Below are positions 36,664-64,000 of a stretch of DNA of 64,000 nucleotides, in pieces (within the stretch, counting starts at the first letter, position 1; each line of letters starts with the position of its first letter). The translations under genes were made by a program, and so were the position numbers. The DNA comes from a virus: positions 25,229-89,228 of the IMG/VR virus record IMGVR_UViG_3300050034_000403; one strand, given 5' to 3'. Below the pieces are notes generated by a model, which saw only the letters and a list, made by a program, of their open reading frames with translations, did not search any database and was not told where the DNA came from.

Positions 36664-37967
36664 GTTGCATCTATGCGATGCACTTCAACTGCATTGCTAC
36701 CGATATGGTAGCGCTGTCGCTACGGATTTCGCGTTGCACTTATCCAGTGCACTTCAACTGCATTACTACGCTGGTGGGTCCTTGTAAGTTGCATCTACGC
36801 GATGCACTCAAACTGCTTTGATGCTTGCTACCTTTTGGCACATTTCCATTTTTCCAGTAGTTGCATCTATGCGATGCACTGAGACTATTTTGCGACACGG
36901 AGTTGAATCAAGAAGCAATAAGCCTGTTGCATCTATGCGATGCACTTTGACTGCTTTGCTATCCCACTAATAAGCCTTTGCAGGATCATTTTCCCAGTTG
37001 CATCTGCTCGATGCACTTTAACTACCTTGCGACCATGTGAGAATGCTGGTGGCTCTCTCTTGACGAAGTTGCATCTGCTCGATGCACTCAAACTACATTG
37101 CGACACGGCTACGGAAGCCGTCTTGCTGCTGCTATGAATGTTGCATCTGTTCGATGCACTTTAACTACCTTGCGACGACTGTTTATGCTTTTGAACTCAC
37201 ACACTACGACCGTTGCATCTGTTCGATGCACTGAAACTACATTGCGACAGCAGAAAAAATCGAGAAATGATTCCGATACCATGTTGCATCTGCTCGATGC
37301 ACTGAAACTACCTTGCGACGAAACCTGGAAAACCTGTCCACCGGGACCGTAATAGTTGCATCTGCTCGATGCACTAAAACTATCTTGCGACGTTCGACTT
37401 CAGCCAAGAGAGACATGACCGCGAGTGTTGCATCTGTTCGATGCACTTAAACTATCTTGCGACCCTATAATTTGTCCAGACACTAGCGTCCACAACCGTT
37501 GCATCTGTTCGATGCACTGAAACTGCCTTGCGACGCATGTACTCCCAAAGCGTGTACTCTTGATGCAAGTTGCATCTGTTCGATGCACTGAAACTACATT
37601 GCGGCTTGGTGAGCCCTTGGAAAGTGTTAGCAGGTCATCAAGGTTGCATCTGTTCAATGCACTGAAACTATCTTGCGGCATGATCGAGCAGTTGAGCAAT
37701 ACAAGGTGCGATACGCGTTGCATCTGTTCGATGCACTTTAACTACCTTGCGACACGAAATTGCGGGACTCTTTTACCAGGTGATGGATGTTGCATCTGTT
37801 CGATGCACTGAAACTACATTGCGACCTAAACATCACCATGCAGGACAAGCTCGACCTCCAGTTGCATCTGTTCGATGCACTGAAACTACATTGTGACTCG
37901 CCACCTTCGGAAGAAACAAGAAGACCAGAAGTTGCATCTGTTCGATGCACTGAAACTACATTGCGGC
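36664..37967 (-). CRISPR. CRISPR array 2: 19 repeats, 18 spacers (mostly 32-37 nt; one 18 nt and one 29 nt)
   Basis: 37-nt repeat GTTGCATCTGTTCGATGCACTGAAACTACATTGCGAC on +, uniform at the right end and degenerate at the left; leader on the right. Confidence 0.97.
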
Positions 37968-38150
37968 TGCGCTCATTATAACGCTTTGCGATTGAAGAAG
38001 ATCAAGGACGTTTTTCGCGAACCTCGCAAATCTGCGCTCTTCTAGTTGGGATGCTCGATACAATGCCCTCATTATCTCCTTCAAAATCATTTTCTTACGC
38101 CTTGCGCGAACCTCCCGCCTTTTTCCGGCCGCTTAGGGTTCGCGGAAAAC
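37968..38150 (-). promoter_or_regulatory. CRISPR leader of array 2
   Basis: Minus strand reads CGCGAACCC...GGAGGTTCGCG...AT-rich...GAGGTTCGCGAAAAA...TATAAT, 7 nt before the repeat. This inverted/direct GCGAACC layout is characteristic of type I-C/I-D-like leaders. Confidence 0.8.
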
Positions 38151-38154
38151 CAGC

Positions 38155-38700
38155 TCAAATCGTCGGTTGATACGTGCCGGCCATCAATTGCTTGGCGATC
38201 ACGTCGTTTTGGTTGGGCCATGCCGCACGGCGCGCCAACCCTTCTCGCTGCGCTTCCCGCACCGCATCCGCTTTGATCCATCGATCATAACTCTGGTACT
38301 GGATCAGCCGCATCCATTCCAGCACCAGCGTGCTGATCGCTTGATTCACAGCCGCCAGCGTGCCCGGTCCAAAAAGGCCATCCACCTCCACAGTGTGGCC
38401 CGCATGGATCAGCGCGGCCTGCAAATGCTCAATACCGGTCTCTGTGCCCTGGTTTACCCCATCGTCAAGCAGCTTGGTGGCCACGTCCTGGTTCACGATC
38501 TGGCTGTAGAGCGGATTCCAAAAATACTTCAGATAAAGCGCGGTCGCTTCCTCGGCCGTCTTTGGCTGGGCAATCTTAAGAAGCTTGCACGTGGCCGCTG
38601 ACCATCCGAACTTGGTCTTGCCGCCAGGGTCACCCTTCAGGGTTCCCACGCCCCCCTCATGCGCCAGCACCACCTTGATCGCCACATTGAAATCAGCCAT
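38155..38700 (-). CDS. Endolysin, glycoside hydrolase family 108 with a peptidoglycan-binding domain
   Basis: HEGG....DPGGKTKFG, Y.KYFW, LLDDGVNQG, LQ.AL.....VDGLFGPGTLAA. Confidence 0.88.
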   Translation of the reverse strand: MADFNVAIKVVLAHEGGVGTLKGDPGGKTKFGWSAATCKLLKIAQPKTAEEATALYLKYFWNPLYSQIVNQDVATKLLDDGVNQGTETGIEHLQAALIHAGHTVEVDGLFGPGTLAAVNQAISTLVLEWMRLIQYQSYDRWIKADAVREAQREGLARRAAWPNQNDVIAKQLMAGTYQPTI

Positions 38701-39232
38701 GCACCAGCTCTCCCTGCCCCAGCAAAAAGCTTTCGTACGCCCGCAAGACGTGCGCCTTGCCCACAGGCTGGCAGCGGTCGATGAAGAATACGCCGTCAAG
38801 ATGATCGATTTCATGTTGCACAATCCGTGCGGCCGCGCCCCGATAAATGGTGAGATTTTCAGCGTCAGGCTCTTCGAGGGTGCCATTGCGCACATGCACA
38901 ATCTCGCTACGCCATATTCTGGCCTTGGCCCGCTCGGTCGGCGGCAAACTCAGGCAGCTTTCCGTCGCCAGAAAATCCTTTCCTGCCCAGTTCACAATCT
39001 CTGGATTAATCAACACCTGAATTTCGTTCGACGGGGGCAACTTCACCACCGCCAGTTGCAGAAAGACGCCTACCTGCGGGGCAGACAGTCCGGTGCCGTC
39101 GTGTTGTTGCATCAGGCGCAACATCTGGCGGATCAACACGCGCACATTGTCCGACTTTTGTACGCGTCGACAGGCTCTGCCTGCGAGTTCTCTGTGGTAA
39201 AAATTCAGCGACAACTTTCCCAAGCGCGGCAT
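38693..39232 (-). CDS. def: Peptide deformylase
   Basis: Motifs GTGLSAPQVG, INPEI, ESCLSLP (EGCLS variant), QHEIDHLDG. Confidence 0.92.
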   Translation of the reverse strand: MPRLGKLSLNFYHRELAGRACRRVQKSDNVRVLIRQMLRLMQQHDGTGLSAPQVGVFLQLAVVKLPPSNEIQVLINPEIVNWAGKDFLATESCLSLPPTERAKARIWRSEIVHVRNGTLEEPDAENLTIYRGAAARIVQHEIDHLDGVFFIDRCQPVGKAHVLRAYESFLLGQGELVHG

Positions 39233-62013: not shown

Positions 62014-63059
62014 TTGGATACCTCTGTGCCAATCTGTACCAGTACGGGATGTCTCACAAACGGACAGATCTGGTGATATCCGCACCATTTGCGATCGCAA
62101 CCCCACCAGCTTTGGTTGGCCGGCACAAAGACGCCGGTTTTCATGGCGTGGATCAAATTGGTGAAGCGGTTTAAAAATACCTGCACGTCGTCCATGTCGC
62201 GTGTGGTGATCGTGGGCACGTATTTTAATGTCGGCTTCGCGGCATTGGTGCGGACCAGAAAATCCAACACCATTTTGTCGGGCAATTTCCCGTCCACGAC
62301 GTAGCTGGCTAGGGAATAAGCAGTAAGCTGCTCGGAATCATCGGCCGTGCCCGCTTTATTGTTCCCGTCCATATAGGACGGAATAGGCGATTTGCCCGAT
62401 GTTTTTGTGTCACGGATGACGAGCAATTCCTTATCTCCGTCATGCACAATTTCCTGCACGTCCTGCTCACCCACGAAATCAACGCCTGTGCGGGCAGCGG
62501 CATTTAATGACCGCGCCTGTGCGTGCAGGATATTGGCCGCGTATTTGTCGGGCGTCGCTTCTGCCGAAGCGTGCAATTCTTTTGCCCGGGAGCGCAAAAA
62601 AGCGTCCATGTCCACGGAGAATTTACGGCGTGTGCGGACTGGCTGAATTTTCGGTGCCGCCTCGTCGTGGTGCAATCCGGACAAAGAAATCGCCTTGTCC
62701 TTTGCCTCGCCCAATACCTGGTCCAGGCTTTTGCCATCCTTTTTCTCGTCCTGATCGAGTTCGATGGGTTCGTTTTTCTGCTCCTGCTCGAACTTGGCGG
62801 CCGAGATCGCGAGCACGTCGTCGCGCTTCAACAGCTCCCCTGTCTCGATCTTGTGGTCGAGATCCTGCGTCACCGATTCGTCTGTGGATTTGCCCACCAG
62901 CAGAAACGCGTTCGGCGGCGACTTGATGCCGAGGATGTAGCAGAAAAGGAAGCGCTGGCCACAATCTGCGGCCATGTTCAGCGCAGAGACGTGGATCTGA
63001 CGGCGCTGTTTGGATTTAGGCGTAATTTGTTCGATAGAAGGAACGACAGAATCTCTCAT
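62010..63059 (-). CDS. PD-(D/E)XK exonuclease (RecB/AddB/Cas4-like, four Cys)
   Basis: S.L....DCGQRF, G..D......IRDTKTSG, QLTAY, C-terminal C...WCGY..IC; partner of Bet. Confidence 0.85.
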   Translation of the reverse strand: MRDSVVPSIEQITPKSKQRRQIHVSALNMAADCGQRFLFCYILGIKSPPNAFLLVGKSTDESVTQDLDHKIETGELLKRDDVLAISAAKFEQEQKNEPIELDQDEKKDGKSLDQVLGEAKDKAISLSGLHHDEAAPKIQPVRTRRKFSVDMDAFLRSRAKELHASAEATPDKYAANILHAQARSLNAAARTGVDFVGEQDVQEIVHDGDKELLVIRDTKTSGKSPIPSYMDGNNKAGTADDSEQLTAYSLASYVVDGKLPDKMVLDFLVRTNAAKPTLKYVPTITTRDMDDVQVFLNRFTNLIHAMKTGVFVPANQSWWGCDRKWCGYHQICPFVRHPVLVQIGTEVSK

Positions 63060-63140
63060 AGCGTCCTCAATAATTTGAGAGATAGTCTGAATCCAATTTT
63101 TTGTCTACTGTAAAAAATTAGAGTAGACGCGCAGCGGAGT

Positions 63141-63335
63141 TTGCCTTATGCTGCGCGCATGGAAAAGAAAACCAAGTTGACGAAAGCCGATCCAGATTTT
63201 TATAGAAAGATTGCCGCCATTGCCGGCAACAATCTGGTGCGCAAGAAGGGTACAGAATACTTCTCTAAGCTGGCGGCAAAAAGCCACCCACGCGATCATT
63301 ATTTTGGCGGACGCCCCAAGAAGAAAGTGGCGTAA
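63141..63335 (+). CDS. Small basic protein with KGG-like motifs
   Basis: DPDFYRKIAAIAG......KGTEYFSKLAAK. Confidence 0.5.
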   Translation: MPYAARMEKKTKLTKADPDFYRKIAAIAGNNLVRKKGTEYFSKLAAKSHPRDHYFGGRPKKKVA

Positions 63336-63392
63336 CCGATTCCTTTTTTTTGCTGCCGTGCTCATGAGGCGCGAGGTTGTCGCGATTACCGG

Positions 63393-64000
63393 GTTGCATC
63401 TATTCGATGCACTAAAACCGCATTGCTACGGTGGAATGTCCACTTCTTCGTCAGACGTATACAGTTGCATCTATCCGATGCACTAAAACTGCGTTGCTAC
63501 AATAATCTCCCAATGGAGTGGGAACCCGACTATGTTGCACTTGTCCAGTGCACTAAAACCGCGTTACTGCATCGGCTTTTTGTATTTCTCCGTGTTGACG
63601 ACAGGTTGCACTTGTCCAGTGCACTAAAACTGCGTTGCTACGCCTGTCCATAAAGAATAAGCCTGAGGACATTAAGTTGCACTTGTCCAGTGCACTAAAA
63701 CTGCGTTGCTACGCCCAATGTCTCCGATGATGCTCTCTGGACGAACGGGTTGCACTTGTCCAGTGCACTAAAACTTCGTTGCTACGAGGTGCCGAGATGG
63801 GCAAAGACAACATTTATGTGGTTGCATCTATCCGATGCACTAAAACTTCGTTGCTACCACCCAAGATGGTGAACACCGATGGGCGCTCCACCGTTGCATC
63901 TATGCGATGCACTAAAACTGCGCTGCTACCGTCTCAGACCGTTACAGGCATCAACGTATAAATGTTGCACTTGTCCAGTGCACTAAAACTACGTTGCTAC
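63393..64000 (-). CRISPR. CRISPR array 4: at least 9 repeats and 8 spacers (33-36 nt), runs to the window edge
   Basis: Repeat GTTGCACTTGTCCAGTGCACTAAAACTGCGTTGCTAC interspersed with the GTTGCATCTATCCGATGCACT variant; starts at 63393, 63464, 63534, 63605, 63676, 63749, 63821, 63893 and 63964. Confidence 0.95.

Follow-up and report, generated by a model that had tools for sequence, protein, structure and literature searches.

Polymorphic repeats with covarying hairpin stems in phage arrays assigned to a putative Cas12m-like CRISPR system

The DNA analyzed here, referred to as the window, comprises the final 64 kb of one virus contig of 89,228 bp (IMG/VR record IMGVR_UViG_3300050034_000403). 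Positions are those of the window, and related loci are designated by an L followed by a number. The element in question is a set of three repeat arrays located between positions 36664 and 64000. A 20-nt hairpin motif, GTTGCAYYTNNNCRRTGCAC, occurs 51 times in the window if up to two mismatches are allowed, compared to 0.18 occurrences expected by chance, and is found on the plus strand in all three arrays. The repeats are 37 nt long, follow each other at a spacing of about 71 nt (66–74 nt with few exceptions), and enclose spacers of 29–37 nt, which is the layout of CRISPR arrays. Array 2 (36664..37967, minus strand) contains 19 repeats, 16 of which are distinct. Array 3 (41253..41994, minus strand) contains 11 repeats, all distinct, and array 4 (63393..64000, minus strand) contains nine, eight of them distinct. 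A further array with seven full-length repeats lies outside the window on the opposite strand, near the start of the contig (L001:1538-1981). No spacer occurs at two places within the genome, and none is shared with other phages.

The strand of array 2 corresponding to the CRISPR RNA (crRNA) is the minus strand, and the leader-proximal end is at position 37967. Directly upstream of the first repeat lies a promoter-like leader (37968..38120, minus strand) with the elements TTGATC (38005-38000) and TATAAT (37980-37975), which are separated by a 19-nt gap and end 7 nt before the repeat. The whole leader of 150–190 nt is homologous to that of an array adjacent to Cas4-Cas1-Cas2 in the relative L226, and its promoter part is homologous to the leader of the outside-window array (L001:1385-1537). 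At the trailer end of array 2 (36664-36962), the repeats are most divergent and the spacings are irregular (69, 55, 72, 66). The shared leader is absent at array 3, which follows directly downstream of an open reading frame (42022-42630, minus strand); the first repeat in crRNA direction (41958-41994) has kept the hairpin, and its 5' tail has been replaced. Array 4 is cut by the contig end inside its last repeat, and its leader side is off the contig.

Within the three arrays, 35 of 39 repeats are distinct (42 of 46 if the outside-window array is added). With a mean column identity of 85%, they are not the near-identical units of a generic CRISPR array. A preliminary description, made from the sequence of the window, had noted this polymorphism of adjacent repeats, six loop variants, two interleaved stem alleles in array 4, and the near-invariance of GTTGC and GCACT; all four observations were confirmed. 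The loops TGTTC (the most common one in the window), TGCTC, TATCC, TATGC, TACGC, and TACTC are all present, and TATTC, TGTCC, TGTGC, and TTTAC have to be added. In the relative L174 (L174:4571-6337 and L174:1681-2142), the same stem carries the loop GAACA, the exact reverse complement of TGTTC, which looks like an inversion across the palindrome. The two alleles of array 4, GCATC..GATGC and GCACT..AGTGC, are arranged in blocks (ATC, ATC, ACT, ACT, ACT, ACT, ATC, ATC, ACT). Columns 1-6 (GTTGCA), 9, 13, 17-21 (GCACT), and 25-26 never vary, and columns 22 and 30 are nearly random (1.91 and 1.94 bits).

The substitutions respect the stem. Columns 3-8 and 14-19 form six base pairs and are paired in 99.2% of the cells; the pairs 7-15 (UA/CG) and 8-14 (CG/UA) have changed on both sides. 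None of 500 shuffles reached the observed pairing or covariation score, where variants are counted as sequences and not as events. About three stem alleles occur in the full arrays of this genome and several more in a compact cluster whose 12 hairpins belong to the same family (20410..21034, no strand assigned, spacings 38-71 nt). This cluster lies apart from the three arrays and was used solely as a source of extra stem variants, among them GCGCT/AGCGC, GCGTC/GGCGC, and GCGCC/GGTGC. No family in Rfam matches the repeat. A second stem or pseudoknot formed by positions 22-24, either with the loop or with positions 30-33, was considered and dropped, as pairing is possible in only one variant and would leave too short a linker.

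In nearly all arrays, neighboring repeats resemble each other more closely than randomly paired ones do. For array 2, the observed similarity of neighbors was matched by none of 2000 shuffles, and in none of about two dozen arrays tested were neighbors significantly less alike. Such likeness is compatible with local descent or with transfer in blocks. On average, the longest identical run shared by two neighbors is only about 10–20 nt in the arrays of the window.

The variants are reproducible. At least 79% of the sampled words of positions 36500-42100 were found in 23 peat-metagenome runs from 16 studies. Contigs from runs of 2018, 2024, and 2025 showed no difference from the window over 37219-37497, 41321-41562, and 41536-41954, to give three examples, and the neighboring genes of these strains differ by about 0.3–0.5%. 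Among the differences listed there is a single repeat change (36809, position 22), and hence no sign of repeat hypermutation. In two other runs the spacer 37034-37067 is replaced, and the flanking repeats and spacers are unchanged. It might be argued that the variants are assembly or sequencing errors in a repetitive region, as an array is cut off by the end of the contig and short-read contigs are broken up in all of the arrays. However, independent peat metagenomes from different studies and years (2018–2025) reproduce the variant repeats exactly, which shows that they are not assembly errors; furthermore, the same type of polymorphism is seen in dozens of independent assemblies of relatives, and the changes keep the stem paired. 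The probability of such an artifact is therefore negligible. In the run that holds the phage best (X1), contigs at about the depth of the phage carry window-type repeats flanking spacers that are absent from the 89-kb contig. Three extra spacers from the read table, checked by means of short motifs, are likewise absent from this contig. The phage or close variants of it consequently have more units than were assembled.

No cas gene was found in the 89-kb contig. In relatives, however, a protein of 689-753 aa recurs beside such arrays, and members of the wider family reach about 785 aa. This effector carries a Cas12f1-like TNB domain, and its best sequence matches among PDB structures are Cas12m enzymes. 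An AlphaFold model deduced from 32 homologues (predicted local distance difference test score, pLDDT, 83.8) matched Cas12m2 and GoCas12m best, with E-values of 1e-19 to 1e-17 across about 690 columns; Cas12f and TnpB ranked lower. The roughly 100 protein clusters of the effector are all unnamed or labelled "zinc ribbon". Most members have a D/E-E-D RuvC triad, whose first residue varies (D, E, H, R). The link to the window is provided by the DNA from the exonuclease gene up to array 4 (62032-63331). Its identity is 92.6% to L198:4170-5469, which comes after the effector-adjacent array of this relative, and about 83% to the counterpart in L226. Due to this shared flank, array 4 is considered orthologous to the effector-adjacent arrays of L198 and L226. 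By this synteny an effector gene is expected just beyond the contig end, where it is probably located. Metagenome contigs were scanned with the last spacer of array 4 in order to extend the contig; no match was found in the searched set, which may lack near-identical records.

Type V-M was formerly named V-U1. From the sequence comparisons, we infer that the arrays are true CRISPR arrays and belong to a Cas12m-like (type V-M-like) system in temperate phages of peat Acidobacteria. The relatives' effector resembles Cas12m most in its full-length fold (PDB 8hhl, 8hio, 8pm4; PMC10442227, PMC11013384). As in Cas12m systems, the repeat has a length of about 36-37 nt and a 3' 6-bp helix that ends at position -3, after which come A(-2) and C(-1); a G lies immediately 5' to the helix. 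More precisely, the helix of the Cas12m2 crRNA is formed by -22..-17 and -8..-3 and accompanied by a G(-23)-A(-2) pair (PMC10442227). In the repeats studied here, -19..-14 pair with -8..-3, and G(-20) and A(-2)C(-1) are present; both the sequence and the predicted fold of six variants agree with the published description. V-U systems typically contain no acquisition genes (PMC11013384), and the same is true for most loci considered here. The first RuvC residue varies among Cas12m variants as well, and PMC11013384 states that variants with a D-E-D triad also fail to cleave.

Several differences have to be noted. The effector shares 14-15% sequence identity with the solved Cas12m structures, at template modeling scores (TM-scores) of 0.43-0.57. 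With 690-785 aa as opposed to about 600 aa, it does not have the size of a compact effector. Some members are accompanied by Cas4-Cas1-Cas2, the helix encloses a simple 5-nt loop instead of a further stem-loop, and the carriers are temperate acidobacterial phages, in which as many as five arrays lie dispersed. According to PMC11013384, repeats are highly conserved between orthologous Cas12m systems; the available part of this paper is silent on repeat differences within an array.

The arrays would be transcribed from the minus strand of the window, as judged from their anatomy and from the relatives. The promoter-like element common to array 2 and the outside-window array precedes the first repeat on the minus strand, and in relatives the effector gene is followed downstream by the arrays, which share its direction. 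Of the distinct hairpins in which a single pair is non-Watson-Crick, 36 contain a G-U pair in minus-strand orientation and 14 an A-C pair. A first test with 332 repeats had been uninformative (30 versus 31); the set was later enlarged and restricted to single-defect hairpins. All arrays with a majority wobble form are of the G-U type (L193, L197, L199). In the compact cluster, single-defect stems are mostly G-T on the plus strand (3 versus 1), opposite to the bias of the full arrays, which raises the question of which strand is transcribed there.

In the minus-strand orientation, each repeat would read 5'-GUCGCAAUGUAGUUUCA-G-[UGCAUC-GAACA-GAUGCA]-AC-3', followed by the spacer. All tested variants fold into the same hairpin with 6 bp and a 5-nt loop, then AC. 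The effector presumably uses this 3' hairpin as a handle. It would read the sequence at the three spacer-nearest stem pairs, at the first and the last base of the loop, and at the G and the AC that flank the hairpin, and the shape alone at the three loop-proximal pairs. The proposal of the preliminary description that the variation maps what the effector reads is supported to this extent: the invariant positions are the base of the stem, the two terminal bases of the loop, and the G and AC on either side of the hairpin, and this pattern matches the 3' design of the Cas12m2 crRNA. The reading rules themselves are deduced from sequence conservation and should be regarded as predictions.

Integration by Cas1-Cas2 is polarised; it copies the leader-proximal repeat and thus keeps an array uniform. 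Most loci of the family contain no adaptation genes, and three lineages (L173/L189, L175, and L226) possess Cas4, Cas1, and Cas2 between the effector gene and the array. A comparison set of 19 non-redundant effector-linked arrays with at least five repeats each was analyzed. In the three arrays beside Cas4-Cas1-Cas2, 1 of 11, 1 of 22, and 5 of 15 repeats are distinct, the last array consisting of uniform blocks. In contrast, 56–100% of the repeats are distinct in the 16 arrays without Cas4-Cas1-Cas2 (Mann-Whitney P=0.004). Homogeneity is therefore linked to Cas4-Cas1-Cas2. In a quickly calculated effector tree, the module-bearing loci belong to three clades, two of which include module-less relatives with heterogeneous arrays. 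Furthermore, a uniform cas-adjacent array coexists with polymorphic distal arrays in two genomes, namely V2 and the L226/L008/L010 element. A transition from uniform to polymorphic inside one array is shown by L174, where ten identical leader-proximal repeats are followed by fifteen heterogeneous ones. According to the family-wide comparison, uniformity goes with polarised acquisition and polymorphism with its absence.

The arrays of L173, L226, and L175 resemble canonical Cas1-Cas2 arrays in that they are uniform or blocky and that the repeats at their trailer end are the oldest and the most divergent, whereas the arrays of the window and of its module-less relatives are heterogeneous throughout. 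Two side observations concern the uniform arrays. In the cas-adjacent array L173:12393-13146 (identical to L046 and L189), units 6 and 7 from the leader have identical spacers, that is, a unit has been duplicated. The 26.9-kb virus record L008/L010 (IMGVR_UViG_3300028060_000001) is classed as 100% complete with direct terminal repeats. Over 3,950 nt it does not differ from a portion of a 130-kb metagenome contig (L226), and it ends in a CRISPR leader; since leader-like sequence overlaps the "terminal repeat", the record probably represents a fragment.

How such arrays change is evident from four strains whose array is orthologous to array 4 (L198, L227, L219, and L233). Their effector genes are 98.6–99.3% identical, and their exonuclease flanks are 94.7–96.1% identical. 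For L198, L227, and L219, the exonuclease side shows only 90.8–96.1% identity, compared to 98.6–99.3% on the effector side, and the array appears to be a recombination junction between genome modules. All four strains have the first four leader-proximal spacers (S1-S4) in common, and the trailer repeat is found in three of them. Between these ends, insertions, deletions, and one-for-one spacer replacements occur. The strain differences are thus non-polar and the reverse of the canonical pattern, as it is the leader-proximal spacers that are held in common. Repeats located between identical spacers also differ: a TC/CG doublet at positions 11-12 is exchanged twice, position 14 is altered, which represents one side of a compensatory change, and position 22 is occupied by either G or T. 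These differences look like short conversion from other repeats and not like independent point mutation.

We propose that these are Cas12m-like arrays in which, without polarised duplication of the repeat, the repeats diverge and are shuffled, and are filtered by the function of the crRNA hairpin; a probability of roughly 0.65 is assigned to this interpretation. The arrays would not be extended by polarised Cas1-Cas2 integration. They would gain, lose, and replace units internally and undergo short conversions between repeats, so that point changes accumulate and are shuffled. Selection on the crRNA would remove hairpin-breaking variants only, and the expected outcome is compensatory stem alleles and nearly free variation in the loop center and the 5' tail. 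The route of internal turnover could be recombination with other arrays or an adaptation module that is supplied in trans and integrates at internal repeats. The explanation given in the preliminary description is thereby partly supported. Its suggestion that units move by recombination agrees with the internal insertions and deletions of the four strains and with the replacement of spacer 37034-37067 in the window, the evidence coming mainly from relatives. The comparison of spacer order among related phages, which it had recommended, yielded a conserved leader end and internal differences.

A number of observations weigh against this interpretation. The comparison set contains only three independent module-bearing loci. 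L174 has ten identical repeats and no adaptation module within 12.4 kb, although its contig is rated only 28% complete; absence of the module in cis is therefore not sufficient for polymorphism. The near-uniform base composition of positions 22 and 30 would require a very long time if it were due to slow drift alone. Loci whose flanks have diverged by about 7% already have no spacers in common, so repeats may outlive spacers or variants may be imported. In a test of linkage between hairpin and tail, the association within the same repeat and across the spacer was equal in all directions. Neither an effector gene, as searched by tblastn, nor a Cas1 gene was found in the 89-kb contig, and function at this locus consequently rests on synteny and relatives. 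Finally, all spacers were compared by BLAST with the relatives' loci and gave array self-hits only, and three 27-nt spacer cores had no exact match in viral contigs.

According to an alternative, which was the main idea of the preliminary description, repeat diversity is positively selected because identical 37-bp repeats collapse through the action of phage RecT and exonuclease. A RecT-family single-strand annealing protein (60456..61601, minus strand) and a PD-(D/E)XK exonuclease (62010..63059, minus strand, downstream of array 4) are indeed encoded beside array 4. The recombination genes at 60.4-63 kb had been assigned as Bet/Exo; the nuclease is confirmed, and its partner belongs to the RecT family, so that the module is of the RecT type rather than Bet. 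Identical runs of about 10–20 nt should, moreover, lower annealing-based deletion. However, the intact orthologous exonuclease (349 aa) and, at the end of the locus, the start of a RecT open reading frame lie beside 22 identical repeats in L226/L008, and the 22-repeat array of L226 is identical to the one in virus record L008. Adjacent repeats are more similar than random pairs, not less, strains show frequent loss and replacement of units despite the polymorphism, and homogeneity tracks Cas4-Cas1-Cas2 and not the recombinase. Diversification selected to counter recombination is therefore unlikely, but shorter identical runs may stabilize the arrays as a by-product. A similarly low probability applies to the idea that the stem covariation is made at the DNA level by quasi-palindrome template switching, which copies one arm and requires no selection on RNA. 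Strand switching across a palindrome is expected to leave a reverse-complemented loop. The repeat core is a DNA palindrome, the GAACA loop of L174 is of exactly this kind, and doublet changes occur in repeats between identical spacers. A process acting on DNA only does not predict the 36 versus 14 bias toward G-U on the crRNA strand, nor that the majority-wobble arrays are all of the G-U type; furthermore, the invariant unpaired bases beside the stem indicate a constraint at the level of RNA or protein. Template switching may be a source of mutations, which does not replace selection.

One could also imagine that a cas-less phage uses mixed hairpin alleles to load its guides onto several effectors of prophages or co-infecting phages, or to decoy them, which would amount to a broad-spectrum hijack or a role resembling RNA anti-CRISPRs. 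This would agree with the missing effector in the contig, with the presence of several stem alleles in one genome, especially in the compact cluster, and with alleles that are characteristic of lineages (ACT/AGT in L176; ACC/GGT in L175, L191, and L199). Against it stands the effector gene that is expected by synteny beyond the contig end. Moreover, arrays with a single effector mix ATC/GAT, ACT/AGT, and ATT/AAT (L198, L219, L227), and sister effectors differ in their allele (ATC/GAT in L173 versus ACC/GGT in L191 and L194), so that tolerance of any Watson-Crick pair is the simpler reading. Unlike solitary decoy repeats, the units have normal 29-37-nt spacers and are regular, and one array has a full leader. 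Both the hijack and the decoy variant are for these reasons very improbable. Returning to divergence under a hairpin filter, a more far-reaching version can be put forward as a tentative and rather doubtful possibility. Effector-only phage type V arrays could be long-lived scaffolds of diverged repeats in which spacers are exchanged internally, cassette by cassette, in a non-polar manner by recombination or by adaptation in trans. Repeats would then outlive spacers, and the CRISPR memory would be renewed without a ratchet at the leader end.

The genes surrounding the arrays, which code for an integrase, RecT, the PD-(D/E)XK exonuclease, a primase-helicase, a GH108 lysin, a serine recombinase, and a terminase, are those of a temperate phage. 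The 886-aa primase/helicase (53270-55930, minus strand; CHC2 zinc finger and AAA_25) has a weak match to a Hint domain at residues 172-261, which may represent an intein. Two overlapping serine-recombinase open reading frames (35079-36600, plus strand), one with a Recombinase domain only and the other with Resolvase and Recombinase domains, end 64 nt before the trailer end of array 2. No close relative of the window was found among deposited phage genomes. Repeats of this family are also present in many contigs of peat viruses and in a small number of Acidobacteriaceae genomes. Among Acidobacteriaceae species genomes, the effector was rarely encountered, with one partial match in 301. The cultured acidobacterium Telmatobacter bradus DSM 23630 (L135, L158, L109; ~1,031,940-1,034,250 and 861,635) contains small arrays of the same repeat family. 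Six repeats have the same hairpin core, five of them are identical over the full 37 nt, and scattered single repeats are also present. Neither Cas1 nor an effector homologue was found in this bacterium, and its arrays are orphans in a potential host.

The Cas12r-CRISPR system of the Lalka phages, which are Thermus viruses (bioRxiv 10.64898/2026.04.20.719267), is similar in that a temperate phage encodes a TnpB-like type V effector and, after it, an array whose repeats are "degenerate" and whose spacers are unique; no adaptation module in the loci is described in that paper. The Lalka system differs by its 29-bp repeats, its short arrays, and a host from another phylum. Its spacer targets are known to be integrative elements, whereas none were found here. 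Degeneracy is only mentioned in the available part of the paper, which contains no analysis of covariation, of a link to adaptation genes, or of array change. Engineered Cas12a arrays likewise carry a different functional, hairpin-preserving repeat variant at each position, which lowers recombination. In that case the variants were designed deliberately, whereas there is no evidence here of selection for stability and L226 provides a natural counterexample. The present analysis adds the family-wide link to Cas4-Cas1-Cas2 and evidence for non-polar turnover.

The arrays represent a natural mutational scan of the handle of a Cas12m-like crRNA, which distinguishes fixed bases from pairs that require pairing only. 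Such a scan helps in the design of non-repetitive multiplex guide arrays for compact, DNA-binding Cas12 tools. Furthermore, as uniform repeats accompany the acquisition genes within one protein family, repeat heterogeneity is a readable marker of arrays that are no longer fed by polarised acquisition. According to the textbook picture, an array is new at its leader end and old at its trailer end. In contrast to this picture, a spacer turnover that persists internally in such arrays is suggested by the strain comparisons, which matters wherever the order of spacers is used as a timeline.

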